Below are positions 20,961 to 64,000 of a stretch of DNA of 64,000 bases, one piece after another. Position numbers and translations under genes: made by a program. Positions within the stretch are counted from its first letter, which is position 1; every line of letters begins with the position of its first letter. The notes under the pieces were generated by a model, which was not told where the DNA came from, ran no database searches, and was given only the letters and a program-made list of their open reading frames with translations. Location of the stretch: NCBI RefSeq assembly GCF_011630105.1, contig NW_022727368.1, positions 169,157 to 233,156 on the forward strand, given 5' to 3'. Source of the DNA: Anneissia japonica (taxonomy: Eukaryota).

Positions 20961-20964
<4 letters not shown>

Positions 20965-30041: not shown

Positions 30042-30062
30042 GTGAGTAGCTAATGCAATGTA

Positions 30063-39167: not shown

Positions 39168-39267
39168 CAAAACGGCGAACAAACACTTGTTGAGGGCGAT
39201 AGCACGTGTTGGAACAGGCGCCTTTGAGTTCTTTGACACAGCCAGAAAGTCAAAATGGGCAAGGAAA
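39168..39267 (+). CDS. PARP4: PARP4-like exon 18 (SKTANKHLLRAIARVGTGAFEFFDTARKSKWARK), vWA.
   Basis: Acceptor tatttag| and donor AAA|gtaaga. Matches human STANRHVLRILSQCGAGVFEYFNAKSKHSWRKQ. Confidence 0.65.
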
Positions 39268-39329
39268 GTAAGAAATTAATTATCTTATTTCAAAACTTGA
39301 TGAATTGACATATTCTTTATAGTAAAAAA

Positions 39330-40350: not shown

Positions 40351-40502
40351 AAGCAAGGCAACCAGCACTGAGCAATGTGAGTGTGGAGTGGCAACAATCA
40401 GATGACAATGCCTCCAAACCCATCCAAGCTCCAGGACAGATAACATCCTTATTTAGCGGTTCACGCCAAGTAGTGTATGGGTATGTTCCATTCTGCAGAC
40501 AG
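40344..40502 (+). CDS. PARP4: PARP4-like exon 19 (LLKARQPALSNVSVEWQQSDDNASKPIQAPGQITSLFSGSRQVVYGYVPFCRQ).
   Basis: Donor CAG|gtaagg. Matches human SVSVKWQQLNPDVPEALQAPAQVPSLFLNDRLLVYGFIPHCTQ. The acceptor (agagtcag|) lies in the last unit of an upstream 3x ~340-bp tandem repeat. Confidence 0.55.
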
Positions 40503-41334
40503 GTAAGGCATCTTTATAATAATAATAATGTTATATTTATATAGACCATATTGCACATTACCCCTATGCACTTTACACAGAAATGATATAGACTAACCGA
40601 GAAAATACAAATAACAATAAAATAATAACTATATAATAAAATAAAAATAATAATCATAATAACAAAAATAACAATGATGCTAAACTACTTCTATTCCTTA
40701 AACTAATTAATGGTTGGCCGTTGACTCCGAGGAGCTCATCCGCCTTTTGTTCAGCTATTGGTTTTTCTTGCTGCTGGCTAACCAAAATCACCCTTCTCCC
40801 CCCCCCCCCCCCCAGCAGCCACTATGACATATCATGAGAGGCATATCTTCAAGTTATATTTATTAAATAATATTTTAAGTGAGTTTATTATTAACCTGTA
40901 ATCATGGTAAAAGTGTATTACAGTTAAAGACCACTTTTGGGCCTTTGATTTCCATGGGCTCTAGTTTTTTACAATAAGACGAGTCTACTAAATATTGTCA
41001 TGTGATCACACATGTGAGAATTAATTTTTTCATGTATTGTGTAATCCATTTTTGATCATATTCTTTACCAGTTATGCCTGTCTTACCTACTTTAAATACA
41101 GTATTATAAACAAAATTATTATTGACTCATGTGCTTCTTTATTTAAAATGTAATTTGACTTTCATTTCAATTCAATTCAATTCAATTAACATTTATTCAA
41201 TTAATTATAATAAATACATCAAGTGATAAAGAAAGTGGACAACATTAAAATTAATTAATTAGGATCAAAAATAGAAGCAAAGCTTGTCTCAATTTGACCC
41301 TGACAAAACAAAAAGTAAAAACTAATAATAAACG

Positions 41335-41735
41335 CATATCAGGTAGACCTACATTTTATATACAAATATATATATATATATATATACACATATATACATA
41401 TATACATACACACATGTACATACACACATACATACATATACACACACTTACATACACACACATACACCCCCATACATTCATGTAAATACACACACACACA
41501 TATACATAAACACATACATAAATGCACACACACACACACACACAAATCAACATATACACACTTATGCACACATATATATATACATACAATATAAATCATC
41601 AAAGGTACATATGCAGTGTTTAGATAAGGACATGATGGAACATCATAGGCTACCCTGTAGCTATTTAACAAATGTACATGTATATATGTTTGAATATCAT
41701 ACATATATACATAAACATACACATACATATATAAA
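41335..41735. repeat. Compound (CA)n/(TA)n/(CATA)n microsatellite.
   Basis: Direct inspection. Gives rise to the spurious ORFs 41294..41728. Confidence 0.9.
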
Positions 41736-42008
41736 ATAAAATAAAATATTTAAATAAAGTTAAGATTGCAAAGGTCCTTCTATTAAAAATTATAGTTAAA
41801 GATGTAGCAGTATTTAACATTATGCTTTAGAATATTCTTTTGCATATGGATTTACTTGCAGCATTTGGTCGACTGGCTTCACAGAATGATTATTTAAATG
41901 ATGCATACGAGTGGATCCATGGGGGGGGGGGGCGATAGTCATCATTAAGTCAAATGCATGGTCAGAGGTAAATCTCTATCATCATTGTTTATATTTTTTG
42001 TATTAAAG

Positions 42009-42089
42009 GCAACATTAAAAGCTGAAATTAATGGTGATGAAATCTCAACTATGGTATCTACCAATGAGCTTAGCGTAACAAGGGGCAAA
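42009..42089 (+). CDS. PARP4: PARP4-like exon 20 (ATLKAEINGDEISTMVSTNELSVTRGK).
   Basis: Acceptor tattaaag| and donor AAA|gtaagt. Matches human ATLCALIQEKEFRTMVSTTELQKTTGT. Confidence 0.6.
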
Positions 42090-42641
42090 GTAAGTTTGTT
42101 TTAGATTTTATTTTATGGCATATGAGAGCTATATAGAAAAAGTGAATCCATTTTAGGGTTAAAATGCATTTGAATCCCAGGCCGGAGTCTTGGGCTTAAT
42201 TCTTGTTAGTGACATATCACATGACAATTTAGGACTGCCAATTAAAAAATTGTAATGAGAGTTGTCTAGAGATCATAGGGTTTAATACCACATTTAGCAT
42301 GTAGAAGTGAATCCATCCTAGGGCAATTTAAAATAGCTTAAACAATACAGTAACAATGCAAGGCCATACAACTTATACTACATTTTGTATTACACTAGCA
42401 GTTAATACCTCTGTGTTCTGTATGCTTACATAATGGTTTACTAAATAATTTGATTATTGGTTTGTTTCATTGTGTCCGGCCTTTTGTGTTCGTATTTGTG
42501 AATCCATCGTAAGGTCACATTGTTGTTGGTCAATGAATGGCTCTCTAATGTTTGACCAATGAAATTTGCACATTATTATCACAGTTTTGGACTGCCAATT
42601 TTAATTTAATACAATTTTCGGTACTCATTTGTTGCCATCAG

Positions 42642-42824
42642 ATTCTTCATCAATTGACAGCAAGAGCCATTATTCGTGATTGGGAGGATGGAACCCTGGA
42701 TGTCAATCCAGTGGAGCATGACGTGAAGAAGGACGCACAGAAATCTTATATCATTGATCTCAGCAAAGAATATTCCATTGTGACGCAATTCACCAGCTTC
42801 ATCGCTGTTGAAGAACGAGATAAG
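42642..42824 (+). CDS. PARP4: PARP4-like exon 21 (ILHQLTARAIIRDWEDGTLDVNPVEHDVKKDAQKSYIIDLSKEYSIVTQFTSFIAVEERDK).
   Basis: Acceptor gccatcag| and donor AAG|gtttgt. Matches human MIHKLAARALIRDYEDGILHENETSHEMKKQTLKSLIIKLSKENSLITQFTSFVAVEKRDE. Confidence 0.75.
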
Positions 42825-43575
42825 GTTTGTACGGAAACAGGAGTATTAAAAAGATAGCATAAATTATTTACTGTTTATTATTTATTGAAATTGATGTAGC
42901 GCACACATCCAGAAAACTGCTCAAGGCGCTTTCTTTCCCCCCTGTTCATTGGATACAGAATCAGTCACAAACAATGTATACCCTCCTCTGCTCCTAAAAA
43001 AATGTTAATTTACCTATCAAAACAATGTTATTATGATACCACGCTATCAATTGTGCCATCCTTGTGGCCACAATTTAGTTCCCCAACTAAACCATTAAGT
43101 CACTATAATAGTCACCTCCTCTGTATTCACTAAATGCTTTACTGTCTTTTAATGTGTGTTAAACTTTGAAGGTCAAAGTACACTCTACGGCAAAGTACAG
43201 AATTTTCCTCTAAGCGTACTGCCAAATTGACCATCAGGATTTGCTCTGTAAAGGCCCAATTTAACCTTCATGGGTCGGCAAGGCCCGCTGGTTCAGATTA
43301 CATGATGAACGTATTTCAGTTACCGTAAAACGGCGTATTAGCAGTGTTTAGGGGATTTGGTATATAAAAATGGGATGATGTTGATACGGTGATGTTAACA
43401 CTGGGATGTCTGGTGTGGTTATGATTTGAATCGGCGAGCGACAGCCTTTTTATAGGCACATCACATGATTGTCGGCAATACGCTGCCATGAAATGTGCAT
43501 AAGGTGAGCATTCGTTGGTAAAAGTTTTCTAAAAGCTACCAGAACTATATATATTTTTTTTTTCATTTAATCTAG

Positions 43576-43728
43576 ACTGATTTTGTAGGAGCAGTGTTCA
43601 AGCCTAGCATTAATGATCTTGTTGCCAATGAAGATGTGGATGATCTTCCATATGTGTGCTGGGAAGATACCGTCTATTCAAACTTTGAAATATGTTCATT
43701 GAGCGTTGAAACACCTCCTCCAGTCCAT
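43576..43728 (+). CDS. PARP4: PARP4-like exon 22 (TDFVGAVFKPSINDLVANEDVDDLPYVCWEDTVYSNFEICSLSVETPPPVH).
   Basis: Acceptor ttaatctag| and donor CAT|gttagt. Resembles human PDIPKVSELIAKEDVDFLPYMSWQGEP. Confidence 0.55.
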
Positions 43729-44057: not shown

Positions 44058-44086
44058 GGAAGATATGAAGGAGATTACATCATCAG
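44058..44086 (+). CDS. PARP4: PARP4-like 29-nt micro-exon (GRYEGDYII).
   Basis: Acceptor cttatag| and donor TCAG|gtacag. Phase links exons 22 and 24. Confidence 0.35.
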
Positions 44087-44708: not shown

Positions 44709-44740
44709 GCAATTCTGAGGATTCATCCATTATATGGATA
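44709..44740 (+). CDS. PARP4: PARP4-like 32-nt micro-exon (SNSEDSSIIWI).
   Basis: Acceptor tctcttcag| and donor ATAG|gtaaat. Phase 2 in and 1 out, which is the phase the mini-exon array requires. Confidence 0.35.
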
Positions 44741-46479
44741 GGTAAATCACAGTACATTTCCTTTTTTTTTTTATTGTTGATTACATTGTTTTATGTATGT
44801 CAGTGGTGGTACCAGCATGTGGGCAGGAACATGCCTGGATCCCCTGCCATCCGCCAACCATTTGCTAATGTATGTATGCATGGTATGTACATAGTACGTA
44901 TAAGCAATTAGTATAATAGCATATTATACACTAGTGGAAATTATTATACAAAGATTTAGATTAATGCATGAAAGCAGTTTTTGAATGCATTTTAATAATT
45001 TCCTCTAGTCTATAAAGCCTGTCACCATCTTTTAATGTTAGTTTCGAAAATATATGTGTGATCAAACTGTTTCAGAAGTCATCGATTGCTGTTATGGTTG
45101 AATAAATTTGCCTTGAATAACTTGCCTTCCAATCCCAGGATCCTGGGTTTGAATCCTGTCAGATTCCAAGATTTTTTCTCATGACAAAACAACTATAATA
45201 TTATGTTTTGAGTCCTGTAAAACTAGATTTTTGCACATAACTAAAATTTGATGTGTAAAATTAAATCAGTATTATCAAATATGTTTTATTCTAGATACAT
45301 AGAATATTAGGTTATTGACAACAAATTCTCAAGGTTGTAAGAGAGCACCAATCTTTAAGTGTATATTATAAATAATTTCATAGATGATAAAAACAAATAA
45401 AAATTTAATTTTCCATACACGAAACACATTTATTCTACAGATGCAGGAAAAGGACGATTTTAGCTTGGTTTAGTGTGTTCTTCTTTGGCATGCTCAGCGG
45501 GGAGCATTGGCATTGGTTTATCTTGTTAATTATCACTCACTCATTACTAGTGACATTTTCTTGTTTAGTTAGATACTTTTTAACATACTTGACTTTTTTA
45601 TGTATTTGACAAACTCCTGAAATAATATACTGATTTCAAACTAATATAAATTTTCACTAATTATGTTGTTTTATTTTACCAACGTATCCTTGTACGTACA
45701 ACACGTTTGTCATCGTCTGTACATTTCATTATACCATACAACAAGACAATTGGAGGTTCTTCATTCCCTTGTTATGCTTTTAGACTTTGGAATAATCTTC
45801 CAACTGACCTTCGGGATATTTCAAATAGAAAAGGGAGAATTCCCTTGTCTGACATGCCTGGAGCCTGTCATTCGATGCCATGACGAGGTCATCGGATCAA
45901 AAATAAAAAGATAATAATTTGCCTATTCAAATATTAACATTTTGATTGGCAGTCCCTGTGGTCTAAAAGTACAATTTCGACCATACTAAGCCTTAAAAAC
46001 TCTCCCAGTGAACCCTACCAGGCTTGACCCCTCCCTTAAATTTAAATTCAAATCAGCTGTCATACCCCCTGTCACAATATTTCTGGAGCCACCACTGGGG
46101 GAACATTGGCATTAGTTTACCTAGTTGAGTATCTCACACATTAATAATGACATTTTCCTTGTTTGGTTAGATACTTTTAGGACCCCTAAATTTTGACTCC
46201 TTTGGAAACAAACCTTCTGGTTTAAAGGGTTATCCAATGCTCCCTCCAACCTGTTTTCTGTTTCTAATGCATATAATTGTGTATTTCTTTTCTTTTGTTT
46301 GTATTCTCTGGTTTGTCTGATCTCTTTTTACCTTGTTGATGTTTTCCTCTGTTACTTTTGAATGGCTTTGTTTTGTAAATTTGTTCTATGTAATGCTTCT
46401 GTGAGCATGAAATAAAAATAACAAACTACTTTTCTGTTACAGGATTGCTACATTATGTCATGCAGTTTAAGTTTTAATC

Positions 46480-47348: not shown

Positions 47349-47386
47349 CTGTCTCTTATACACATCTAGATGTGTATAAGAGACAG
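47349..47386. other. Exact Illumina Nextera mate-pair junction adapter, CTGTCTCTTATACACATCT + AGATGTGTATAAGAGACAG (Tn5 mosaic end and its reverse complement, abutted).
   Basis: 38/38 nt identity to the junction adapter. This is a library-construction artefact, not native sequence. Confidence 0.9.
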
Positions 47387-48480
47387 GTTCAATGGCAATT
47401 TGAATACAAGAATCTAAGTTAAGTTAAATGGCAATTTGAATACAAGAATCTAAGTTAAGTTAAATGGCAATTTGAATACAAGAATCTAAGTTTTAAAGTG
47501 TATTTAGATTTTCATAATTTTTACAATTTTAATATATAATCTATGGTAGGTGGATGGGCATTCCATAATTAAACATATTTAAAACACATCCTTATATCAA
47601 CCGGGCCATCCATGCGACGTGCCCTATTAGTGGTAATGGCAGTAATTTACAGTCCTTTTTGAAACCCTTGTTTTTTTTTTGTAGGTGTAGGGGATCCCTG
47701 GGGACCAACTTAAAAAAGGCAATGAACGTTATTAACAACAAAAACAAGAAAAGGAGTTAGGTGCTTTTTTATAGTAGTAGCTTTTACTGGGACTAAACCT
47801 AATTGTCAGAATGACCGTAGTATCATGATATTATCAGGAGAATTAATTTATTTTAAATGATTTTAATGATTTAATTTGATATTCAGTTGTGGCAAGAAGT
47901 CCAAAACCAAAACTAAAAAACGTTTTCATTCAGTTAAAAGCAGAGGGTAAGTAAAAACATGAAGGTATTATAATACCTCCATGGTAAAAACACAAGTAGC
48001 TTGTAATTTGATGCATGCTACATTGTTTAATGGAGGAATAAGTTTAGAATGAAATTAAATTCATGTAAGAATTTAAACTAATTCCTCCATGATTGTATAT
48101 TGCACTTGTCTTGGTGGAGATTAACCAGTGATGGTATCAAATGACAGATTCTATAGGACAATGTATTGTTTACTTGTGCTAAACAAAGGAGTGCAGTCAT
48201 TTCATTAATGTAAAATTAGCAGAAAATATTGTGATTTAATGGTTAAAGGAATATATTGCTAACATAGCTGACATTCTGTTAAATAGATGTGCAGGATAAT
48301 GCACATCTAAATGATAGGAAGCTTTTGATTTGTGCAACAACGTGACACTAGGACTGATTCACTCATGCATGACCGCCCTGTATTCTTTGCACAACATATA
48401 TTTGGCCAAATTGCGTCCTGGAATTCACGCAACCCTGTGAACTGCACATTGTGATACTCATCAGCACTGAAAACATGCAA
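47387..48480. repeat. Segmental duplicate. 47387-47826 ≈ 51837-52252 and 47995-48480 ≈ 54665-55135 (each >95 percent), i.e. the two flanks of the DIRS element.
   Basis: Near-identical long matches by inspection. Begins immediately after the mate-pair adapter. Internal (aaatggcaatttgaatacaagaatctaagttaagtt)x3 mini-repeat. Confidence 0.7.
47887..47946 (+). CDS. PARP4: Array mini-exon (VVARSPKPKLKNVFIQLKAE), phase 1/1.
   Basis: Canonical ag/gt splice signals. Symmetric phase matches exon 24. Lies downstream of the adapter junction, so genomic placement is uncertain. Confidence 0.3.
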
Positions 48481-49374
48481 ATGTTATGAATTTGTGGGAG
48501 AAGGGTTACTTACCGGGAGATATTTGCTTAATGATTTCCGGGAGATTTCTATGAGTTTTGGTACACTCTAGAAAGGTCTATTCACAAGCAGAACAACCCC
48601 ACTGGAAATTTATCAATCAACTTTATTTCGGACTTTTATCCATGTAATAACAAATATAAATATAAAGATAAACCGCATTTATAGAAATTATAGAATACCT
48701 TTACAGATATTAATGCAATATAAAATGCCATTTAAAAAAACATTGAATATTTCAATATGCAACTGGCAATGCCTAAGACAGGGGAGTTTTCAGATGCAAA
48801 AATACTTGACATGACGTCTTACACTGATTTTCTTACCGACTTGAAAAACATAGTAACTTGCTGAGACAAACATGGTGCTAGCACTGCTTGCTTATGGTTT
48901 ACTAATATCAGTGCATTATTGTAGCATACTCTTCAACCAAGAAGCGCTATATAAGACCAACATATTATTATTATTATTATTATTAGCCCACAAAATTACA
49001 CATTAGAAATTCTTACATTAACTCCTGATTAGCATATTTTTATGCGTGAGTTTCACAAATACTGATCAACTCTCCAGCAAACGAAGAGGACATTAAAATA
49101 TCAGTGTTTGGACAATGTGGTTTATTCGTTTTATGTCAATGGTCTATAGCTTAATTAAGAAGATTTTATAGTATGTATAAATCATATTATCAATGTATTT
49201 GGTATTTTTCTTTTTTTTTTTTTTTTTTTTGTTAATTTATATGATTTACAAATCATAGTAAGGAGAACTAATCCATCATTGCCAATAAATATACCAATGT
49301 CAAAGGTTAACATTATAGACCATTTTTTAAAATCTGGTCAGATTCTTAAATGTTCTTTATTTTTTTATTTATAG

Positions 49375-49446
49375 ATCAGTACTGTTCATCCAAATCACAG
49401 AAAACCAAAGCAAGACTCCCTGATTTAAAAAAAAGTGTAAAAAAAG
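49375..49446 (+). CDS. PARP4: Array mini-exon (QYCSSKSQKTKARLPDLKKSVKK), phase 1/1.
   Basis: Acceptor tttatag| and donor AAAG|gtttgt. No stops in this frame only. Confidence 0.3.
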
Positions 49447-50369
49447 GTTTGTCTCATCTGTTTAAATTCCTTTGACCAGCATTTTGTTAGTACATACTCT
49501 CAGGGGAATGTTAGGCCAGTGGTGACACCATTGGGTTGGGAGGGGGTGGGAGCTCTTCTGCAATTTAATGGTGGCATTCCCATTTTAATTTCTATAGCTT
49601 CTTTTATTTTCCTTTTGAATGAATGAGTCTCTTCAGTTAGTGCTTTTATTTTATTCCAATTAATTGTCCAGTGATTTTACAATGTTCTGCTACCGCTGAA
49701 TGTATTTTAACACGTTGATTTAAATGTTCCTTGACACGTGTGTCTAATGATCTTGCGGTTTCTCTGATGTACGATTTTCCACACGTATCACACCAATAGT
49801 TGGCATGCACTTTTTTATCAAGTATAAGTAGGGTTGGAAATTTGCAACATACAGTATTTTTTGGCGATTCCTTTCCGGTTTGTTGTGGGAATTGGCGCGA
49901 AAAATGGTGTTTGTATAAGAGTTATTATTAAAGTGGGTGGGGTGGTGGTTGGAAATTATGAACATATTTTGGGAGATTTATTTTATAGAAAGGATTTTGC
50001 GGTGGGTGGTTATTGTTCTTACTACTCTTCTATACTTCTTATCCTCCTCCTTCTTTCGAATAATGCCAAAATTTTTAACCCATTTAGGCAACCGGCCTAT
50101 AGACCATCTATGGACTAAAGAGAGATTTGTTGTTAATAAACTTAAATAAGTGTATTAAATGACTATATTTAAACAAAGGCTAGTGGAAGAGCATTTCGAA
50201 TCTATGAACAAGGGTCAAAATATGAACATAGGGTCAAAAAGCATTTCGCAAACACAACCAAGCCAAAATCTACGGGTAATTTTTTTTTTTTTTTTTTTTA
50301 AATGCTGACCAACTAACCCCAATATAAGTTAATGTGTTATGTTAATTATCAATTCCTCATCATTTTTAG

Positions 50370-50420
50370 GCCGTGGGAAATCATCTGGACAACTAGAAAT
50401 TTACTATGAAGCGAAGATGC
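50370..50420 (+). CDS. PARP4: Array mini-exon (RGKSSGQLEIYYEAKM), phase 1/1.
   Basis: Acceptor atttttag| and donor ATGC|gtaagt. Paralogous in position to the 51430 unit. Confidence 0.3.
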
Positions 50421-50928
50421 GTAAGTATCACTCATCAATTCATAATTAATTAATCATAATTATTAATTATTTGTACAATGCTATTTCAAGTGTTCTTCCA
50501 TTATTTTCTTGTAAAAATTAAATAATATCAAGCAAAATTTATAATAATAATTAATAGTATATTAAAGCTTAAGGATCATTAGTTTAGAATAAATAATAAC
50601 TTCATGGATGAATTTAAACTAATTCCTCCATGATTGTATATTGCACCAGTGGCAGTGAACTTGAACCAGTGATGGTATCAAATGACATAGATTTCTATAG
50701 GACATTGGATTGTTTATTTGTGCTAAACAATGGAGTACATTTAATTTCATTGGTATAAAGTTAGCAGGAAATATTCAGATTGGTTGTTTAAAGTAATGTA
50801 TTGGGGTTTCCTTTTTGGGGTGTTGGGTGGGGTGAAAGATCGTGTTTGTTTAAGAGAAAAAATGAAACATATTTTTGGAGACATATAGAAATAGATTTGC
50901 AGTAAACAGACATATGCTCTGATTGCTC

Positions 50929-50934
<6 letters not shown>

Positions 50935-50996
<62 letters not shown>

Positions 50997-51065
50997 AGTA
51001 TTATTATTATCATTATTTTATTATTATTGTTATTATTTTTATTATTGTTCTTATTATTCTTATTC
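50935..51065. repeat. (ATT)n microsatellite, about 40 units.
   Basis: Direct inspection. Explains the poly-Ile ORF 50747..51013. Confidence 0.9.
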
Positions 51066-51429
51066 CTCTTTAAAATTCTTCTTATTTTATTGAATCGGAC
51101 ATTGCTCGACTTTTTAACACATTTTAGGCCACCAGCCCATAGAGTAACCTTAGACAGAACAGAGATTTGTTCTCAATCTAGTAGCAACATTGAGAAACTT
51201 AAATACATTTATTAAATGATTATATCTAAACAAAGGCATGTGGAAATGCATTTAGAATCTGTTAACCTAGGGTCAAAATTATATTTTCCATTGCCCAAAC
51301 ACAAAACCAAACCAAATTCTAGGGTATTCTTTTTCCTCTTTTTTTTTTTATTTTATAAGAAATGCTGACCAACTGACCCTGATATAAGTTACTGTGTTAT
51401 GTTATTTATCAATTTTTTTTTATTTGTAG

Positions 51430-51486
51430 CTCGTGAGAGATCTTCTAAAACAAAAGTAAATCTCCGTTCTTTAGAATTGGAATGTA
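51430..51486 (+). CDS. PARP4: Array mini-exon (RERSSKTKVNLRSLELEC), phase 1/1.
   Basis: Acceptor tatttgtag| and donor TGTA|gtaagt. The flanking intron sequence is paralogous to the 50370 unit. Confidence 0.3.
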
Positions 51487-52252
51487 GTAAGTACAGTGTC
51501 ACTCTTACCAAATCATAATTAATTAACCATAATTGTTAATTACTTGTACAATGCTACTTCCTGTCTGCTTTCATTATTTTCTTGTAAAAACTTAATAATA
51601 TCTAGCAAAATTTATAATTAATAAATAAATAATAATAAATTAAATATTAAAGATATAATAAGAATTATTGATTAAAGAGAGGATAATCTTGGCAGCATCA
51701 GTCTCAGAAGTGAAAGTTCAAAGATGAAGAGAGTTCCATAATTTTGAAAACTTACTTTAGCAATTTGAAGTTTAGTAGGTGAAAAAGTGAAAACCTACTT
51801 AAATGGCAATTTGAATACAAGAATCTAAGTTAAGTTAAAAGTTCAATGACAATTTGAATACAAGAATCTATGTTAAGTTAAATGGCAATTTGAATACAAG
51901 AATCTAAGTTTTAAAGTGTATTTAGAGTTTCATAATTTTTGCAATTTTAATATATAATCTATGGTAGGTGGATGGGCATTCCATAATTAAACATATTTAA
52001 AACACATCCTTATATCAACCGGGCCATTCATGCGACGTGCCCTATTAGTGGTAATGGCAGTAATGTACAGTCCTTTTTGAAACCCTTGTTTTTTTTTTGT
52101 AGGTGTAGGGGATCCCTGGGGACCAACTTAAAAAAGGCAATGAACGTTATTAACAACAAAAACAAGAAAAGGAGTTAGGTGCTTTTTTATAGTAGTAGCT
52201 TTTACTGGGACTAAACCTAATTGTCAGAATGACCGTAGTATCATGACCATTG

Positions 52253-54685
52253 TTCCCAAAACGGAACACCCCTTCGAAAAAAAATGGAACAGTCCGACCC
52301 AAGGCGCCACGTGCGAACCGTCTCCCTAACAAACGTCCTCATTCCCTTTTTGACGTTGTTCGAAGTCGGATACATTCTAGCCTTTGAAAATTACTAGCAG
52401 ACTTTTCAAGCAATTCTGTTCTCCTTGGATTTATTTTTGCTTTGGATTTATTTTTGCCTTGGATTTATTTTCAACTTGTGGTTGACAAGATATCCTTTTT
52501 ATTGTAGTCTCGTACGTATCAGTTCAAAGTTCTTCCCTTCGGTCTATCCACAGCTCCTCGGGTGTTTACACGGGTGGTAAAATCCCTAGGTGCAGTGTTC
52601 CATGCGAGAGGGATACGTATTTTCATGTACCTAGACGACTGGCTCGTGTTCGCAAATTCCCGAGCAACTCTGTTGCATCATCTCAGCATTGTCTTAGACA
52701 TGACGGAAACAGTAGGGTTCATTATCAACCGGGAGAAATCGGTTTTGGTTCCCACGCAACTTCCGCTGTATCTGGGGGCGCACATCGATCTTGTTAGTTC
52801 AGTGGCGTTCCCCTCCACGAGTCGGATCCGCAAGTGCCAGCTAGCAATCACTCAGCTTCTTTCCCTTCCGGATTCCCCAGCCGAGTCGTGGCTGCGGATG
52901 TTGGGGTTTCTCGCGAGCCTGGTAGACCTAGTTCCTTATTGCCAGCTTCATATGCGCCCTCTTCTACTGCATCTGCTCGCGTTTTTCTCTCCAGCATCTC
53001 GGGACTTGTCAGCTCAGATTCCCTTGAATGCATTTGTCGCCAGGCACCTCCGGTGGTGGCTTCAGGGGAACGTGCTTCAGGGTTCCCCGACCCTCTCCCC
53101 GTCTTTCGCTCACGGAACGCGTCGTGGGGGACTGGTCGCTGGAAGAATCCACCAGTCACATAAACGTTCTGGAGCTTTTAGCAGTTCGTCGGTCTCTGGA
53201 GGCCTTCGTCGATCGGGCAAAGGGGAAAGCTATGCTAGTTCATTCCGAAAGTTCAACCGTGGTCTCCTACATCAACCATCAGGGCGGCACGCATTCACTA
53301 ACGCTATGCTTCCATACATGGCAGCTCCTGCTTTGGTGTCTCAGCCATCGCATTCATCTTCGAGCAGCTCACATTCCCGGCCGACTGAATGTCCTCGCTG
53401 ATGTGCTGTCTCGACGTCAGTTACCTCCACTCCGTCCGACGGAGTGGAGGCTGTGTCCGGTCGTGGCCCAGCATATTTTCAACACGTTTGGGCGTCCCAA
53501 CCTAGATCTGTTTGCGACGAGCTCGAACACTCAGCTTCCGACGTTTTGCTCCCGGTTTCCGGAACCAACAGCGTGGGCAGTGGATGCCCTGTCCATCTCA
53601 TGGGACGGGTTTTGGGCTTCGGGTTCCCGCCCTTATCGCTTCTTCCGAGGGTGATGGCGCACATCCGTCGCCCCCCATTGCAAGGTTCTCCTGATAGCGC
53701 CATGGTGGGCCCGCCAGGGTTGGTTCCCACTTCTGCTGAGTCTTCTCTTCGAGCATCCCTGTGTGTTGCCGGTTCATCCGGACCTTCTTCAACAGGCCCG
53801 GTCGTGGGTCGGCCTGAACCATTTAACATCGCTGAACTTGACTGTTTGGCCCTTATCCGGGATAATCTCCAAGGTTCAGGCATTCCAGATGGCCCTGCCG
53901 CCATCTACAACAGTCGCCTTAAGCACTTCCTCCTGTGGTGTACCGATCACGAAGTGGATCCTATGTCAGCCTCTCTGGGTCAGGTGTGTCTCTTTTTGCA
54001 TTATCTGTTTGAGTCGGGTCTCAGATTCGCATTTGTTTGTGTCTTCAGTTCGGCCCCACGGGCCTGCTTCTGTTGATACCATTGCTCGCTGGGTGGTTTC
54101 GGCCATCCAAGCTGCTATGCGTCGGCTCGCAAGCCGCCGCCTGCCCACATGCATGAGGTTCGCGGCACGGCGGCTTCTTGGGCTCTCTTTTACGGGGTCC
54201 CCCCTCGCCGACATTCTGGCAGCGGCATGGTGGAGATCGGAGACTACATTTTCATCTTGCTACTTGTGGGATGTCTTGTCGACCCAGGCGTCAGTAGCGG
54301 CTGCTGTGTTGAAGCCGTCTCTGTAGGTAAGTCTTCTGGTTTCTGATCACGCCCGCCTCCTCTTTACGCTGCTAATCTGGCAATTAGTCGGTTATCCAGG
54401 TAAGTATTCACAAAGTAGACTACACAAATCAATCGTGATGTTGGTAGTCTATGAGTGAGATACTTACCTGGATAACCTTCCCTCCCTTCCTACCCTCGCC
54501 GTGATCGTGTCGATCTTTAGGGAATGAGGACGTTTGTTAGGGAGACGGTTCGCACGTGGCGCCTTGGGTAGGACTGTTCCATTTTTTTTTTCGAAGGGGT
54601 GTTCCGTTTTGGGAACAATGGCAATTAGTCGGTTATCCAGGTAAGTATCTCACTCATAGACTACCAACATCACGATTGATTTGTG
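52253..54685 (+). mobile_element. Truncated, frameshifted DIRS-like tyrosine-recombinase retroelement. RT (YLDDW), RNase H (HINVLELLAV), the AFPPF…APWWPRQGWFP region and a YR domain (HEVRGTAASWA … AGRWRSETTF … Y).
   Basis: Inverted terminal repeats 52253-52355 and 54521-54623 are reverse complements of about 103 bp. An internal complementary hairpin lies at 54371-54490. ORFs 52562..54326 sit in three frames. Confidence 0.7.
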
Positions 54686-55216
54686 TAATTTGATGCATGC
54701 TACATTGTTTAATGGAGGAATAAGTTTAGAATGAAATTAAATTCATGGAAGAATTTAAACTGATTCCTCCATGATTGTATATTGCACTTGTCTTGGTGGA
54801 GATTAACCAGTGATGGTATCAAATGACAGATTTCTATAGGACAATGTATTGTTTACTTGTGCTAAAGAATGGAGTGCAGTCATTTCATTAATGTAAAATT
54901 AGCAGAAAATATTGTGATTTAATGGTTAAAGGAATATATTGCTAACATAGCTGACATTCTGTTAAATAGATGTGCAGGATAATGCACCTCTAAATGATAG
55001 GAAGCTTTTGATTTGTGCAACAACGCGACACTAAAACTGATTCACTCATGCATGACCGCCCTGTATTCTTTGCACAACATATATTTGGCCAAATTGCTTC
55101 CTGGAATTCACGCAACCCTGTGAACTCAACGTTCTCGCATTCCCAAATGACTTCATGAGGACAGCTCGCTTAACATCCAGATGCTACATCTTTTATCAAT
55201 TCTTTATCTTTTTTAG

Positions 55217-55264
55217 CTTCTAGGAAAAGTAGAATTAGTTTTGGCCGTCTTTCATTTATAAATG
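55217..55264 (+). CDS. PARP4: Array mini-exon (SRKSRISFGRLSFIN), phase 1/1.
   Basis: Acceptor cttttttag| and donor AATG|gtaagt. Downstream flank is paralogous to the 50420 and 51486 flanks. Confidence 0.3.
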
Positions 55265-56189
55265 GTAAGTATCATTCTTATCAATGCATAATTAATTAAT
55301 CATAATTATCAATTACCTGTGCAATGTTTCTTCAGGTCTTTTTTCATTCTTTTTCTTGTAAATATTTCTTGAAATCCACATATCCTGGAATTTACACATC
55401 CGAAAATGCTTATCAGGTCAACAAGGACACAAGTTCACATCCACACCTGTCCACTACTATATCGTATTGCACGTAAACACATTGGTAGTTGTCATCAGAA
55501 TGCTAACTCCCATCTTTGAATAGAGTTTTTCTTATTGAGGTTTCTCGAAAGTGTCCCCTTGATTAGGAGTTCCACTGCATATCGAAGTACTGTAGTGTCT
55601 CGTAACAAAAATATGTTACTATTTGATAAGCATACTTATTAAAAAAAATAATTATCTAAAGTAGCTTTTCAAAGATTTGTTGATTTCCATCATTTTCATC
55701 TGACTGTTAATTATGACAGTGGTTGCTAGCACCTTTCTCATGTTTTGATTCGATAATGCCCACTATTTTAGCTAGTAGGCACTAAAGGGTAAATGCCCGT
55801 CAATAGTAGGTCTAGACAAATAAGGAGCACAGGATGCGAATGAGTAACACAACACCGTAAAGTTTCTAAAATTACAAGACCAAAACAATTCAACAAACAT
55901 CTGTCTGACTAAGATTATAGTATGCTGCCGGCGCAAATTACTAACAATAGCTAATATGTTATCAAGTTATTTTATTTAAGAAATGTTTTTTTTTTCGATG
56001 TTTTCATAGGAATCTTCTGATTTTTACAGTATATAATTTTAACACTTAAGCTTTTCTGTATAATTTTTTTGAGATGAGACCCAGATGCAATCCAACTACA
56101 CTCAACAATTCACTCACGACCCAAACTTGGGTTGCCGATGGGTTGCCGATGTTAGATCTAGAGGTGCTATGTACATAAAATTGTGTACC

Positions 56190-56300
56190 TAACCCCAGCC
56201 ATGGTGGGGCTCATGTAGTGTAGAACCTTCATTTGTCATAGTTCTTCCCTGCACCCCCTCTATTTCAAATTCCTGGATTTTCCATTGTTCCCCAAGTTCA
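56190..56300. repeat. Dispersed short repeat family with core CCATGGTTGGGGCTGAGG … CTCTATTTCAAATTCCTGGAT. At least 10 copies (5285-5400, 19330-19480, 20395-20530, 30940-31090, 36700-36830, 56520-56650, 56810-56950, 57175-57300, 58085-58220, 61030-61450).
   Basis: Recurrent conserved blocks in both orientations. One copy accompanies each mini-exon unit at 56-58 kb. Confidence 0.5.
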
Positions 56301-56373
56301 GTACAATAATGAATGCAGAACTTGAGACCGGTGATGTTTAATTTATTTTTATTATTGTATTAATTAGATTCAG

Positions 56374-56421
56374 CTCTCTCACGTCCATTGTCTGACCTTA
56401 GTATGAAGGATGAAGAAAATG
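56374..56421 (+). CDS. PARP4: Array mini-exon (LSRPLSDLSMKDEEN), phase 1/1.
   Basis: Acceptor ttagattcag| and donor AATG|gtaagt. First of four 48-nt paralogues. Confidence 0.35.
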
Positions 56422-57016
56422 GTAAGTATAAATAAAAGTGACTTGTACAGTATTATTGTGATCAGATATTCTTATTACTGGACAGCAGACAAAAACTAAA
56501 GTCTTATAGTGCCATGTCTGGTCATCTAGAGGTGCTATAATCATAAATTGTTGGGGCTGAAGTGATCTAGACCCCCCCCCCATCTGTGAAAGTCCCTTCC
56601 TGGACCACTCTATTTGGAATTCCTTGATCCGCCAATGACACCCGTGGTCCATATGTTCACTAGTCTTTATATGATTCATTGGTCAATGATCAATGTTATT
56701 TTTTTTTTAAATATTCTCTATTGTATCTGTAGATGCTTTTCTGTACTTTTCACTCACGACCCAAACCTGGGTCACTACCCATGGGTTGCCGATGTTAGAT
56801 CTAGAGGTGCTATGTACATAAAATTGTGTACCTAACCCCAGCCATGGTGGGGCTCATGTAGTGTAGAACCTTCATTTGTCAAAGTTCTTCCCTGCGCCCC
56901 CTCTATTTCAAATTCCTGGATTTGCCATTGTTCCCCAAGTTCAGTACAATAATGAATGCAGCACTTGAGACCGGTGATGTTTAATTTATTTTTATTATTG
57001 TATTAATTAGATTCAG

Positions 57017-57064
57017 ATATCTTACCTCCAATGCATATGCTTAGTATGAAGGATGGAGAAAGTG
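57017..57064 (+). CDS. PARP4: Array mini-exon (ILPPMHMLSMKDGES), phase 1/1.
   Basis: Identical splice context (attagattcag| … |gtaagtataaataaaagtg) to the 56374 unit. Confidence 0.35.
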
Positions 57065-57381
57065 GTAAGTATAAATAAAAGTGACTTCTATTATTGTGAT
57101 CTGATATTCTTCTTACTAGACATCACACAAAAACCACCCAAAAAAAGTCTTAGAAATGCCATGTCTGGTCATCTAGAGGTGCTATAATCATTAATTGTTG
57201 GGGCTGAAGTGATCTAGACCCCCCCCCATCTGTGAAAGTCCCTCCCTGGACCACTCTATTTTGAATTCCTAGATCCGCCAATGACACCTGTGGTATCATT
57301 GACTAGTCTTTATATGATTCGTAGGTCAATGATCAGTGTCAATGATCAATTTTTTTTTATTATTGTATTAATTAGATTCAG

Positions 57382-57429
57382 CTATGGCACAACCAACCCG
57401 AATGCGTAGTTTTGAGGAAGAAGACAATG
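57382..57429 (+). CDS. PARP4: Array mini-exon (MAQPTRMRSFEEEDN), phase 1/1.
   Basis: Same unit structure as the other 48-nt paralogues. RMRSF followed by an acidic tail. Confidence 0.35.
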
Positions 57430-57568
57430 GTAAGTAAAAATAAAAGTGGTTTGTATTATTGTGATCAGATTTTATTCTTATTGGAAATCAGACAAAAACC
57501 ACTAAGGATGATTTGTAGGTCAATGATAAGTGCTATTTTTTTTTTAATGTTCTCTATTGTATCTGTAG

Positions 57569-57613
57569 ATGCTGATGAGCCGAATCATAGTGCCTTTTTC
57601 TGGAGAGCCAGAG
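57569..57613 (+). CDS. PARP4: Array mini-exon (ADEPNHSAFFWRAR), phase 1/1.
   Basis: Acceptor atctgtag| and donor AGAG|gtttgt. A paralogous copy at 56737 is disrupted by a SINE. Confidence 0.3.
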
Positions 57614-58276
57614 GTTTGTAACTGCTTTTGTTTTCTTGTAAATATTTTATCAAAATAAATTACTCTTTTATTAGTACTGTACTTCATTTTTACATTTACG
57701 TGCATACAAGTCGATAAGGAATTTGTATACAGAGAAACTGTGAAAATATTGCACTTTCAAGTTTCTAAAACTACAAGACCAAAACAATTCAACAAACGTC
57801 TGTCTGACTGAGATTATTGTATACTGCTGGCACAAATTAAAGACAATAGCCAATATGTTATCAAATTATTTTATTTTTAAGAAATGTTTTGTTTCGATGT
57901 TTTCACAGGAATCTTCTGGTTTTTACATTAATTTTAACACTTATGCTTTTCTGTATAATTTTTTGAGATGAGACCCAAATGCGATCCAACGACACTCAAA
58001 AATTCACTCACGACCCAAACTTGGGTCACTACCCATGGGTTGCCGACCGTAGATCTAGAGGTGCTATAAACATAAATTGTGTACTAACCCTAGCCATGGT
58101 GATGCTCATCAGGTAGTGCTAAGAACCTTCATTTGTCAAAGTCCCACCCTCCCCCTCTATTTCAAATTCCTGGATTTGCCACTGTTCCCCTATTTTCATT
58201 ACAATAATGAATACAGAACTTATTTGGGACCTGTCATGTTTAATTTTTTTTTTATTATTGTATTAATTAGATTCAG

Positions 58277-58324
58277 CTAGGGCACGACCAACACGAATGC
58301 GTAGTTTTGGGAAAGAAGAAAACA
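58277..58324 (+). CDS. PARP4: Array mini-exon (RARPTRMRSFGKEEN), phase 1/1.
   Basis: Same unit as the 57382 exon, at 78 percent nucleotide identity. Confidence 0.35.
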
Positions 58325-59825: not shown

Positions 59826-59995
59826 AGGAAAACATGAATTGCTAATTAATACAGGAATGAAAGGTACGTCCTTTCCTCGACCACTACTAAAACAACAAAT
59901 GCAAAGTGCCAGCATTCCACCACCGCCACCGCCTCCGCCTGGACAAAGTTATGCATTTCCATCAGCAGACGTGCCAGCCTACGATATTTCAGGTA
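59826..59995 (+). CDS. PARP4: Pro-rich C-terminal-region exon(s). Either micro-exon KHELLINTGMK (donor AAAG|gtacgt at 59866), or read-through TSFPRPLLKQQMQSASIPPPPPPPPGQSYAFPSADVPAYDIS (donor TCAG|gtatga at 59995).
   Basis: Acceptor cccaaaag|. Open frame matching ORF 59839..60174. Two competing donors. Pro-rich, like the human PARP4 C-terminal region. Confidence 0.3.
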
Positions 59996-60261: not shown

Positions 60262-60357
60262 GGACCAGACCTGGCACTGCAACAGACTCGAAAGCTAGCA
60301 CCACCACCTGCTTCATCTACACCTTTAACACAATATAGATCAGCATCTCCTAATTGT
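60262..60357 (+). CDS. PARP4: Exon (PDLALQQTRKLAPPPASSTPLTQYRSASPN), phase 1/1.
   Basis: Acceptor ggtttaag| and donor AATT|gtaagt. Pro/Ser-rich. Confidence 0.3.
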
Positions 60358-61547
60358 AAGTATAATAAGGAAGCTTTTGATTAAATATTGTAATCATGTA
60401 TTATTTGTGTATCTTCTTGAAGAATTATATATTTTAATTTTTTTAATACATACAGTACTATAATTTAGTTATATGTTTAAAGTAACCTTGTATAATTTTT
60501 GATTTTTAAAACATTTACCTTTTTAGGTGTGCTTTGGTTAAAGAAACAGTCATAGTATCTTAATTAGAGAACAAAATGACAGTGGATTCTTGTTCTTTTT
60601 TATAAGAATTTACCATTGCCACATGAAAAATATGCAGTGCCGGATCAAGGAATTTTGCGAACAAAGGTGGCCCGGGGAGGGAATTTTATGTCGATCTCGC
60701 CTCTAGGTGGCTGGAAACTTCCTTCCACCCCCACCCCTCCCCCATAATTTTTTACATTTTCAAAATGTTGGGGTCTGCCTGTGATTTGTGTTATCTCATG
60801 TATATTTTTTATATTTTGTTTAGTATTAAAAAAAACTTACCAATATAAGACTAGTGTCATCTTTATCATTGTTATACTGTATAGTCATCACCATCATCAT
60901 CTTCATTATTCACATCATCACCATTAAATAATAGATTTCAAACAAATTAAGGTGTTTTTTGTTTTTAAGCAAGTTTGATCAACCCAGACCAGTGGCAGAT
61001 TCAAGAGGTGTGGGTGGTGGGGCCATCCTGAAAGTGCCATCTAGTGGTACCATACCAACCATGTTGGGGCTGAAGCAATCCACCATCCATCTGTTTTAGG
61101 CGAGTCGAGTGGCCGAGTGGTAAGGCAGGGGCGCCGCTGCTAACTACCTCCTTAACATCGACGCTGGCTCCAGCTGCTCCTCCCCCAGGGTTCGTTTGGT
61201 AGAACTAATTCTTCTCGGATAAGGACAAAAAATGGAGGCCTGTGTACACATTAGCTGCTATGATTCATTTCAGCCCTGTCGTGAAGTGATGTGAACATAT
61301 CGGTACTATAAGCGCCTCTTTACAGCCACAAGGTAATCACGGACCACACATTGACACTGCGAGTTGTGGGTTCTCCTACCTTTTCCGTACATTCGCCTTT
61401 CCCTTCATGGGCCCTCTCTATTTCAAATTCAGCAGACCATGACAAATTCAGGTTGATTAATTTTTTTTTACAGGGCTCCTAAGATAAATTTAGGCTCAGC
61501 ATTATTTAATATCTTAATCATTGTATTATTTAATTTAAGTTTCAGCC

Positions 61548-61650
61548 TCGGCCTACCCTACACTTAACCAGGTAGAACCAGTTAGAAATTCAGCCTTCCG
61601 TGAATCTGTAAGCCCACACAGCCAAGAAACCTTCAACAGTTGTGATAGTA
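61548..61650 (+). CDS. PARP4: Exon (SAYPTLNQVEPVRNSAFRESVSPHSQETFNSCD), phase 1/1.
   Basis: Acceptor aagtttcag| and donor GATA|gtaagt. Confidence 0.3.
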
Positions 61651-61978: not shown

Positions 61979-62035
61979 ATATATCATTTGAGTATACGGG
62001 ACCCGGCTGTGCATCTCTCGGAGGTACTGGCAATG
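61979..62035 (+). CDS. PARP4: Exon (ISFEYTGPGCASLGGTGN). Tandem-duplicated as 63229..63285 (ILCDMLSRGSSSPQLGAN).
   Basis: Acceptor tttgtag| and donor AATG|gtttgt in both copies. About 1.25-kb duplicated unit, 61700-62420 versus 62940-63600. Confidence 0.3.
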
Positions 62036-64000
62036 GTTTGTACTTCTTGTGTTTTCTTGTAATATAAAATGTTAAAGGCTGCGTTTATACAGCACTTATT
62101 ACTTTACGTTTTGTTATTTTTTGCTGCGAACCTTGGCCCAATGTTTCCGATATGTTATTTGATGAGAATCAGATAATTTATCAGAAGCAGCTCCAAAATA
62201 CTAAAAAAAATTAACTTTTGACCAAGGTCAAATTTCGGTACTGTACACACACAGAATTATTTTTTGGAACTTTAATTTGTGCGAATGTTCTCAGGCAACT
62301 AGGCCTATTATCAAAACACTTTAATAAATAGTGAGTAATTTTTTTCCGGCTTATTATTAAAAAAAAGACTTGACATCCACGGTGCAGCCCAGCTACCCTG
62401 GGCCTAGGTCTGACCATATTGTATATTGTACCGTAAAATACACCAATGCTGCATTCATTTTCGTTGATACTTCAAAATATATATATGTTATCTTTTTTTT
62501 TTTGTCTTAACTTTTTTTTTCATTTTCTTTCTTGTGTTTTCTTTTCTTTTCCTTACCTTTTCTCTCTTATGTTTCCTTATCTTTTTCTTCCCCTTTTCTT
62601 TCTTATGCTTCCTTTTTATTTTCATTTCTTTACTTTCTTATGTTTCCTTGACATATCCTTTTCCTTGTTAGTAGTATATTAAGAAATTTAATATTATTTG
62701 GCAATTCAAAATACTGAAGAAGAGTAAAGTACAAATTGAGTTTTTGCTTTAGTTAGTGAGTGTACTATTAATTAGTTAGTGAAGAATCTTTTTATTTGTG
62801 CGACGACGTGACACTAGAAAGGATTCACGCATGCGTGATCGTTCTATATTTTCTGCACAACGTTCTCACATGCGCCAATGACTTTATGTGATGCCATTAC
62901 ATTCTACCGTCGTCGTGAAATTGAAAGTTCCCTATTACTTTTTCTATAATTGCTGTTGCTGATGTTTGTTATAGTGGAAAAGTATTTTATTATAGAATGA
63001 AATATCAGTTGTTTTTTTTTTTTTCATAAAAAAAAAACAATTGAAGTTTGCCATCCCAAAACCTGCATCAGCAACCAAAAAATGATATTGACTTTTTGAT
63101 ATTCACATTCTCCACATTATAAACTTTAAATTGATGGGTAATTTACTGGAATCGACTGACTGTTGCCAAAGTTGTGAGTGAAAGTATTTTGTCACTGTGC
63201 ATATTATTTTGTCTTTATTTTATTTGTAGATATACTATGTGATATGTTATCCCGTGGATCATCATCTCCCCAACTTGGTGCCAATGGTTTGTAACTTCTT
63301 GTGTTTTCTTGTAAAATAAAATGTTTTGGGCTCTGTTTCTGCAGGACTTACTACTTTACATTTTGTTATTTTTCATTGCAAACCTGTGCTCAAAGTTTCC
63401 TATATATTACTTGATGAGAATCAGATAATTTATCGGAAACAACTCCAAAATACTAAAAAAATTTAACTTCTGACCAAGGTCAAATTACAGTTCAGTACAC
63501 GCAAAGAATTTTTTTGTACCCGTGGGAACTTCTTTAATTTGTGAAAATGTTTGTTAGGCAACTAGGCCCAGTATCTTTTCAGTCAGTCAGTCAACAGTAG
63601 ATTTTCTTTGTAGCAAGTCAATAATCCAATCAATCCTGGGACTGTGGTTATTGGCATGAGTTGCAGAGTGGAAACACATTCTTCTTAGGTCAATATTAAA
63701 ATTAGGATATTTCTCTTGGACAGATGATGAGAGCTCCGATCCCTGGACAGACAGGATTATTACCAGCTTTATTTTACATATTTGTCTATACTTAGTCCTA
63801 TCCTCTTTTTCTTTTTCCGACCTTTAGCACATTCTCATCTGAGTTTTAAAGAAAAAATAGAATGATCCTGCCATCCTGCTAATCTTAATCGAGCTGATGG
63901 CCCCAACAAGCTAACCACCACCCACCACTACTAATTACATCTGCTATCTTGCTGTTATGTAAATATTCACGCATTCTTGTCATGAGCCATGTTCTTTGGA

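Follow-up and report, generated by a model that had tools for sequence, protein, structure and literature searches.

Tandemly duplicated symmetric mini-exons downstream of a PARP4-like gene of a feather star, Anneissia japonica

The 64,000 nucleotides (nt) of Anneissia japonica DNA analyzed in this study (hereafter the window; RefSeq assembly GCF_011630105.1, contig NW_022727368.1, positions 169,157 to 233,156), AT-rich metazoan DNA with 0 Ns, contain a gene similar to that of the vault poly(ADP-ribose) polymerase PARP4, followed on the same strand by an array of very short exons. This array revealed 15 consecutive exons bounded by AG and GT on the + strand, ranging from 45 to 165 nt, all of them multiples of three in length and all of phase 1/1. 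Sequence comparisons showed that they belong in large part to genuine genomic duplications of intron-exon-intron units. Altogether, we regard the array as the probable 3' continuation of the PARP4-like gene, grown by duplication of such units, and put the probability of this whole explanation at roughly 0.65.

Every mini-exon starts with two nucleotides and ends with one nucleotide of a split codon, i.e., phase-1 introns lie on both sides. A preceding sequence-only reading of the window had described at least ten tandemly duplicated exons of this kind between 47887 and 58324, and all ten (m1–m6 and m8–m11, Table 1) were found there, with boundaries differing by 3 nt at most; AG before, GT after, and a length divisible by three were present in 10 of 10. 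The frame required to continue PARP4 was also open in all ten, but it is not the only open one in m10, where two frames are open, and the range proved too narrow, as five more phase-1/1 exons (d1–d5) follow beyond 58324, out to 63286. Joined to exon A, the last exon with detectable PARP4 homology, and to two putative micro-exons, B and C, the 15 mini-exons splice into one open frame of 405 amino acids (aa) from 18 exons. Exons m6, m8, m9, and m11 carry tandem acceptors 6 nt apart (ttAG/ATTCAG/, with slashes marking exon boundaries). The four paralogs earlier reported as 48-nt exons ending in SMKDEEN, SMKDGES, RMRSFEEEDN, and RMRSFGKEEN are thus real exons, but measure 48 nt only with the downstream acceptor and 54 nt with the upstream one, which is the acceptor taken in RefSeq.

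Taken together, the mini-exons probably encode a disordered low-complexity linker of about 350 aa. The deduced peptide is rich in Ser, Pro, and charged residues, a composition of the disordered type in agreement with the disordered C-terminal region proposed before, and it matched no Pfam family. A suggested resemblance to the stretch 'KRKHRK...SEDFEEDGLG' of human PARP4 was not borne out, with no significant similarity of any mini-exon peptide detected among 120 PARP4 homologs by blastp or regular-expression search. A pattern of the form [R/L]-x-S-[F/L/M] with acidic residues recurs across two exon families, in m4, m5, m6, m8, m9, and m11, e.g., as RMRSFEEED, RMRSFGKEE, RISF/RLSF, LRSLE, and LSMKDEE; judged from the sequence, it may represent a multiplied phosphorylation or binding motif.

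Table 1. Positions of the mini-exons and associated features in the window (slashes in sequences mark exon boundaries)
Feature	Position	Strand	Length and phase	Predicted peptide and remarks
m1	47887..47946	+	60 nt, 1/1	VARSPKPKLKNVFIQLKAE; donor G/GTAAGT
m2	49375..49446	+	72 nt, 1/1	QYCSSKSQKTKARLPDLKKSVKK; singleton, no paralog
m3	50370..50420	+	51 nt, 1/1	RGKSSGQLEIYYEAKM; family 1
m4	51430..51486	+	57 nt, 1/1	RERSSKTKVNLRSLELEC; family 1
m5	55217..55264	+	48 nt, 1/1	SRKSRISFGRLSFIN; family 1
m6	56368..56421	+	54 nt (48 nt with second acceptor)	SALSRPLSDLSMKDEEN; family 2; RefSeq coding sequence begins at an ATG inside (56403)
m8	57011..57064	+	54 nt	SDILPPMHMLSMKDGES; family 2; RefSeq coding exon
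m9	57376..57429	+	54 nt	SAMAQPTRMRSFEEEDN; family 2; RefSeq coding exon
m10	57569..57613	+	45 nt	ADEPNHSAFFWRAR; RefSeq coding exon
m11	58271..58324	+	54 nt	SARARPTRMRSFGKEEN; family 2; RefSeq coding exon
d1	59828..59992	+	165 nt, 1/1	KHELLINTGMKGTSFPRPLLKQQMQSASIPPPPPPPPGQSYAFPSADVPAYDIS; possible in-frame alternative acceptor at 59855
d2	60263..60355	+	93 nt, 1/1	Cassette exon; missing from RefSeq isoform X3
d3	61540..61647	+	108 nt, 1/1	RefSeq coding exon
d4	61979..62035	+	57 nt, 1/1	Family 3; in-frame alternative donor at 62023 in isoform X2
d5	63230..63286	+	57 nt, 1/1	Family 3, paralog of d4
Acceptor-only stub of m10-like exon	56733..56737	+		tctgtAG/ATGCT; at junction of 643-bp tandem duplication (alignment)
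PARP4-like gene body	19883..43728	+		BRCT, PARP catalytic, VIT, and vWA exons, to last exon with detectable PARP4 homology
Exon A	43576..43728	+	0/0	TDFVGAVFKPSINDLVANEDVDDLPYVCWED...; 'EDVDxLPYxxW' motif closing alignable PARP4
Micro-exon B (putative)	44058..44086	+	29 nt	Strong pyrimidine tract and AG, donor CAG/GTACAG; open in required frame
Micro-exon C (putative)	44710..44741	+	32 nt	Acceptor ttctctcttcAG, donor TAG/GTAAAT
Mate-pair junction adapter (presumed)	47349..47386			CTGTCTCTTATACACATCT and its reverse complement; both strands match exactly (chance expectation 0)
Block 'copy 1'	47388..48443	+	1,056 bp	From adapter to abrupt break; holds m1
DIRS-like retroelement, internally deleted	52247..54687	+		Intronic, between copy-2 flanks 51799-52246 and 54684-55126

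The exon pattern is far beyond chance. Between 44742 and 64000, the hexamer GTAAGT occurs 13 times on the + strand; three of these lie in a retroelement, and the other ten are without exception donors of exons in the model, against a background of five on the − strand and six expected from composition. At a stop density of 0.058 per triplet, the probability of finding the one required frame open is 0.003 for m1–m5 and falls to about 7e-10 when the entire chain is considered. A crude scan, in which pyrimidine-tract acceptors were combined with GTAAGT or GTTTGT donors, revealed seven symmetric phase-1-open candidates on the + strand of this region and none on the − strand, and its control, 23 kilobases (kb) of the upstream gene, yielded 0 candidates on either strand. 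Furthermore, the lengths of m3, m4, and m5 (51, 57, and 48 nt) differ solely by multiples of three despite strong divergence.

Comparison of the linker peptide with the RefSeq proteins of A. japonica resulted in 100% identity exon by exon. Splicing 56403-56421 to m8, m9, m10, m11, d1–d4, and d5 plus 9 nt reproduces XP_033113006.1 exactly (isoform X1, 237 aa), with the codons GGT TTG TAA read beyond d5 as Gly, Leu, and stop (63293-63295). Use of the donor at 62023 in d4 gives XP_033113007 (X2, 233 aa), and omission of d2 gives XP_033113008 (X3, 206 aa), again exactly. Thus, half of the ten exons described earlier were already annotated as coding, under the name 'uncharacterized protein LOC117113697'. 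The proposal of cassette-exon diversity holds in part, for d2 and for the alternative d4 donor, but m8, m9, m10, and m11 are present in all three isoforms, i.e., constitutive, and the only in-frame skipping on record, that of d2, lies outside the range originally considered, with none recorded for m1–m11. At its start, the annotated coding sequence uses an internal Met, although the open frame of m6 extends back as far as the exon's acceptor; at its end, it continues across the d5 donor GTTTGT, a hexamer identical to the one used as donor in the paralogous d4. Based on these two features, the LOC117113697 model looks truncated at both ends and is therefore probably a split-off PARP4 fragment. 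A HMMER search with protein P0122 as query against 1.84 billion representative proteins found no homolog outside A. japonica, the matches being X3 and a spurious bacterial repeat protein.

Since global pairwise alignment with free end gaps was unsuited to such diverged exons, whole units were aligned with MAFFT instead. Together with self-comparison of the window, these unit alignments revealed three paralog families, namely m3/m4/m5, m6/m8/m9/m11 (a second array), and d4/d5. Seven of the ten exons first described are clear paralogs inside duplicated units of 0.37–1.9 kb, so that the tandem duplication claimed for at least ten of them stands as a process but not for m1, m2, and m10. Members of the first family share the acceptor region and, downstream of the exon, about 100 nt of intron, and 50010-50576 matches 51042-51654 at 71%. 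The second array contains a 643-base-pair (bp) tandem duplication (56109-56715 vs. 56749-57364, 89%), a longer repeat of 55860-56496 at 57759-58394 (83%), and a 160-bp module around m9 that recurs around m11 (57350-57508 vs. 58245-58403, 93%), while d4 and d5 lie in units of 80% identity (61841-62312 vs. 63096-63575). For m1, only the downstream intron is shared with the m3 unit (48038-48258 vs. 50578-50803, 81%). The junction of the 643-bp duplication falls 5 nt inside an m10-like exon, and the stub left there is the sole copy of m10. Paralogous exons thus come with their flanking introns, the intron phase is kept, and lengths stay at 51/57/48 nt, 54 nt in four cases, and 57/57 nt in the three families. 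The amplification had been called recent, which does not fit most units, as these are only 69–94% identical; the sole pair at 97–98% is an adapter-flanked block that may be a false duplication. A (TTA)45 microsatellite lies between m3 and m4 (50929-51064).

Based on these alignments, the array has grown by tandem duplication of whole intron-exon-intron units. Given the phase-1 symmetry, each unit gained, lost, or skipped would change the linker by 15–55 aa without a frameshift, and after duplication the exon interiors appear to have diverged faster than their own introns, with splice sites, frame, and length class being kept. In all eight paralog pairs analyzed (MAFFT unit alignments, Fisher test), exon identity was lower than intron identity, namely in d4/d5 (53% vs. 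82%, p 3e-6), m8/m11 (59% vs. 84%, p 7e-5), m6/m11 (57% vs. 84%, p 1e-5), m3/m4 (46% vs. 69%, p 6e-4), m3/m5 (37% vs. 74%, p 6e-6), m4/m5 (39% vs. 73%, p 9e-6), m6/m8 (78% vs. 89%, p 0.02), and m9/m11 (85% vs. 92%, not significant). Sliding-window profiles placed the identity minimum of the unit at the exon in five of six cases. Between m6 and m8, 11.8 of 12 differing sites were non-synonymous (proportions of non-synonymous and synonymous differences, pN 0.29 and pS 0.02), with 97% identity in the 150 nt upstream, although exon duplicates of 45–57 nt give low statistical power for ratios of non-synonymous to synonymous substitution (dN/dS). The conserved introns harbored no small nucleolar RNA, microRNA (miRNA), or short interspersed element apart from the adapter palindrome (Rfam gathering threshold for the whole window, E≤1 for 47–64 kb, and a tRNA scan).

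This exon-centered divergence is the one feature of the array that merits follow-up. Diversifying selection on the peptides would account for it, as would patchy gene conversion that homogenizes the introns and keeps the exons different. A point against our account is that the low-identity zones, centered on the exons, reach 30–75 nt into the introns in some pairs, and for this reason we do not treat selection as demonstrated. A stronger version, in which the feather-star PARP4 linker is a diversifying module array, with duplication supplying units of 15–20 aa whose coding interiors change two to three times faster than the introns under selection for diversity, is rather unlikely. If it were true, the rapid, arms-race-like evolution known from the single-exon PARP4 linker of mammals and birds would be ancient in deuterostomes and reached in the echinoderm by another genomic mechanism, with frame-neutral inclusion or skipping of exons as an extra source of variants.

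The gene upstream of the array is a PARP4-like (vault PARP) gene, as proposed by the sequence-only reading and as its predicted domains and homologies indicate. Exon matches to PARP4 of Mytilus, Pomacea, and Acropora occur in order from 19883 to 42824 (tblastn), with residues 2–70 of the Mytilus and Pomacea proteins, the BRCT region, matching 19883-20089 (E about 1e-8). In the concatenated exons, Pfam revealed the PARP catalytic domain (PF00644, E=1e-30; exons 27413-30046) and, C-terminal to it, VIT (PF08487, E=6e-32) followed by vWA (PF13768 and PF00092). The best identities to mollusc and cnidarian PARP4 are about 50%. Using the 704 aa from the PARP domain to exon A as query, only homologs of at most about 50% identity were obtained, all of them no longer than 1232 aa among the matches listed, and the PARP4 protein of A. 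japonica itself was not found in the protein collection. Exon A, whose acceptor is tctAG/ACT and whose donor is CAT/GTTAGT, carries the motif ...EDVDDLPYVCWED..., and about 80 PARP4 homologs match 43603-43670 (tblastn). A long low-complexity tract of the TA/CA type lies in an intron of this gene (41255-41750) and produces spurious 'YIYIHTH' open reading frames (ORFs) on both strands.

A donor closes exon A, and upstream of this exon there is no C-terminal domain of the MVP-binding type, so that the feather-star PARP4 should continue across the locus of the array. PARP4 of the sea cucumber Apostichopus japonicus (P0092), in which a domain of the MVP-binding type follows a linker of about 450 aa containing internal repeats, leads to the same expectation. 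The array lies on the same strand in matching phase, as B and C together would add 61 nt and thereby carry the reading frame from phase 0 into phase 1. We infer that the array and PARP4 are continuous because strand, order, and phase agree and the C-terminal domain is otherwise missing, and it is quite probable that LOC117113697 is a fragment split off from PARP4, forming one gene with the upstream exons. Judged from their splice sites and frames, B, C, and m1–m5 would be spliced in as well. In the sea cucumber protein, residues ~880–960 contain tandem peptide repeats (YELLPVVNEKxMVEEDDESET) and a 'PRPLL' string as in exon d1, which hints at a recurrence of repeat expansion in the PARP4 linker of echinoderms. 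Alignments of m5–m8 to the 'EEDVDFLPYM' region at 28–31% identity were dismissed (E=25–33).

Several results weigh against this continuity. In the collections searched, no protein or transcript joins A to B, C, and m1–m5, or m5 to m6; m1–m5 gained no transcript or database support at all; and RefSeq annotates m6–d5 as a separate 'uncharacterized' gene. Comparison of the linker peptide with PARP4 linkers (blastp against PARP4 tails) gave no significant similarity, and the strings 'PRPLL' and 'ASI...PPPPP...DVP', which the linker has in common with sea cucumber and teleost PARP4, were not statistically significant. Searching 43000-64000 with 120 PARP4 homologs (tblastn) resulted in no credible PARP4 match beyond exon A and no MVP-binding domain between 43728 and 64000; at 63286 the chain of exons remains open, shortly before the end of the window at 64000. 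In addition, m1 sits inside an adapter-bounded block duplicated at 97–98%.

These points leave room for other explanations. The functional exons might be m6–d5 alone, with m1–m5, B, and C being decaying or never-included pseudo-exons in a long PARP4 intron. The lack of database and transcript support for B, C, and m1–m5 would fit, as would the suspect block around m1 and the abundant transposon debris (the DIRS-like element at 52247-54687, a Penelope-like GIY-YIG fragment at 49649-49921 on the − strand, and a THAP-like ORF at 46848-47129 on the − strand). However, m3, m4, and m5 keep AG and GTAAGT, the same open frame, and length differences in multiples of three at an exon identity of only 37–46%, the open-frame probability of 0.003 concerns precisely m1–m5, and none of their four GTAAGT donors is disrupted, so that we consider this explanation unlikely.

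Similarly, LOC117113697 might be a gene of its own, restricted to this lineage and encoding a small disordered protein, that lies just downstream of PARP4 on the same strand by chance, with m1–m5 unrelated or unused. This would agree with a RefSeq annotation comprising three isoforms, with the lack of homologs in other species and of similarity to PARP4, and with the missing junctions to PARP4. On the other hand, an internal-Met start combined with an end by donor read-through is a typical sign of a fragment, the chain fits PARP4 in phase via B and C, PARP4 of another echinoderm has a long linker and a C-terminal domain, so that PARP4 would span this locus, and m1–m5 share donor hexamers, phase, and length rule with the validated exons. 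A separate gene thus appears improbable to us.

Part of the locus bears an assembly scar. The sequence at 47349-47386, CTGTCTCTTATACACATCT followed by its reverse complement, is a perfect 38-nt palindrome, which we take to be the Nextera mate-pair junction adapter and which yields a weak 'miRNA' hairpin score in Rfam. Platanus and GapCloser were used to assemble the A. japonica genome from six mate-pair libraries in addition to short-insert ones (PMC7351957), and the adapter therefore marks a false gap closure. It proves this closure, not a wrong order: a chimeric join misplacing the next block was considered and rejected as a firm conclusion, as GapCloser extension from both sides explains the adapter equally well. 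In the block that follows (copy 1), 47388-47828 matches 51799-52246 at 96.9% and 48002-48443 matches 54684-55126 at 97.7%, with 173 bp including m1 in between. Related copies at 55065-55158, 62784-62900, and 35214-35304 run past the point corresponding to 48443, where copy 1 breaks off. In copy 2, m1 is absent, and a retroelement occupies its place. Copy 1 may be an unmerged haplotype contig, representing the insertion-free allele, that was placed in a nearby scaffold gap, for which we see slightly less than an even chance; if so, one haplotype would carry m1 between m4 and m5. In any case, the placement of m1 is suspect. Both near-identical blocks begin with about three copies of a 36-nt tandem repeat (47387-47492 and 51799-51914).

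That the entire array is a duplication artefact of this short-read assembly is very unlikely. The adapter, the abrupt ends of the adjoining 1.06 kb and its 97–98% identity to 51799-52246 and 54684-55126, and the known assembly method would speak for it, but the other units are 69–94% identical with many indels, far beyond allelic variation, the peptides of m8, m9, and m11 differ and co-occur in the same RefSeq proteins, and the stub at the duplication junction is a genuine genomic structure. At most, an artefact explains the position or copy number of m1, not the array. Finally, any single short ORF is unremarkable in AT-rich DNA, and part of a unit of the second array (56160-56287) resembles interspersed copies in other introns (20360-20457 and 30879-30975, both on the − strand), but chance ORFs between chance AG and GT sites, or transposon-derived pseudo-exons, are contradicted by the donor-hexamer, open-frame, and scan statistics, by the exact RefSeq match, and by the absence of copies of the exon segments themselves elsewhere in the window, and this explanation is effectively refuted for m6–d5.

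Among the closest known systems is the corresponding segment of vertebrate PARP4 (human exon 30), a disordered region of more than 300 aa between vWA and the vault-binding domain. It is encoded in a single large exon, varies greatly in both length and sequence, and is positively selected in primates, bats, and birds according to dN/dS of orthologs (Daugherty et al. 2014, PMC4038475). Provided that continuity holds, the feather-star linker belongs to the same family and position, is of the disordered type, and shows signs of faster-than-neutral change, but it consists of at least 15 exons of 45–165 nt built by duplication instead of one large exon, its rate evidence is exon-versus-intron divergence between paralogs, and similarity in sequence is not detectable. 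In tropoelastin (ELN), many short exons with splice sites all of phase 1:1 can be gained, lost, or skipped like cassettes with the frame unchanged (PMC12554196). The array resembles it in that all introns of the segment are of phase 1 over 15 consecutive exons, in the in-frame skipping of d2, and in a low-complexity modular product; in contrast to the tropoelastin gene, which is of phase 1:1 throughout and extensively alternatively spliced, this layout is confined here to the linker-coding segment of a gene for a multidomain enzyme, with one documented exon skip (d2), and the proteins are different, with no sequence relation.

Tandem exon duplication in general has reportedly been surveyed by Kondrashov and Koonin in 2001 and by Letunic, Copley, and Bork in 2002. 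Classic tandem duplicates are often mutually exclusive, and their exons are better conserved than the introns. The feather-star exons share with them that adjacent exons of the same phase and of similar length lie in duplicated intron-exon units, but the paralogs are co-included (m8/m9/m11 and d4/d5), not mutually exclusive, and the exons are less conserved than the introns. A comparable situation is said to have been described by Nakashima and colleagues in 1993 and 1995 for phospholipase A2 isozymes of crotaline snake venom, with accelerated exon evolution, conserved introns, and significant dN>dS. There as here, paralogous introns are more similar than the coding exons, although those genes are whole-gene duplicates for secreted toxins and the present case concerns intragenic duplicates of exons of 45–57 nt. 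Arrays of short symmetric duplicated exons encoding an unstructured or repetitive segment of variable length are also known from the PEVK region of titin and from the 54-bp exons of collagen, but a recognizable peptide repeat is kept there, whereas the feather-star peptides are so diverged that little recognizable is left beyond short strings such as RMRSF and LSMKD. Overall, the array is a fairly ordinary case of tandem symmetric-exon duplication in a disordered linker.

With respect to annotation, LOC117113697 probably represents the linker portion of PARP4, split off from the rest, and an adapter and a possible false duplication lie inside the same gene. With respect to architecture, the locus illustrates cleanly how tandem duplication of symmetric phase-1 exons lengthens a disordered linker. 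If the hyper-divergence of the exons reflects selection, the host-pathogen conflict proposed at the PARP4 (vault) linker would extend from vertebrates to echinoderms, and many small paralogous units would be available for comparison across crinoids. For the question of vault and PARP4 function, a further sign of diversification in this PARP4 segment, obtained independently, would be useful, though not decisive.

Apart from the array, the window contains several further elements. The DIRS-like retroelement revealed inverted terminal repeats of ~100 bp (52247-52347 and 54519-54621, 97%), an internal complementary region of 57 bp at 54421-54477 matching 54631-54687, just outside the right repeat, at 100%, and a reverse transcriptase domain (RVT_1, Pfam) in the ORF 52508-53398; its GC content is 51%, compared to ~34% around it. 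A 430-bp inverted copy links two introns of the same gene (59073-59493 and 38132-38557, 91%) and represents a young interspersed repeat. The ORF fragment at 49649-49921 on the − strand contains a motif (CDTCGKSYIRETARSLDTRVKEH) of the GIY-YIG-like type, which recalls Penelope-like elements, and the ORF at 46848-47129 on the − strand, just upstream of the adapter and probably transposon-derived, shows a THAP-like zinc-finger signature (C..C ... LHRFPQAHRQEWVKNL); neither matched Pfam at E≤0.01. A second gene occupies 263-12442 on the − strand, with unusually long open exons (799, 462, 364, 203, and 178 aa), none of which belongs to a Pfam family. Cys and N-x-S/T motifs abound in its translations, a composition that would fit an extracellular protein.

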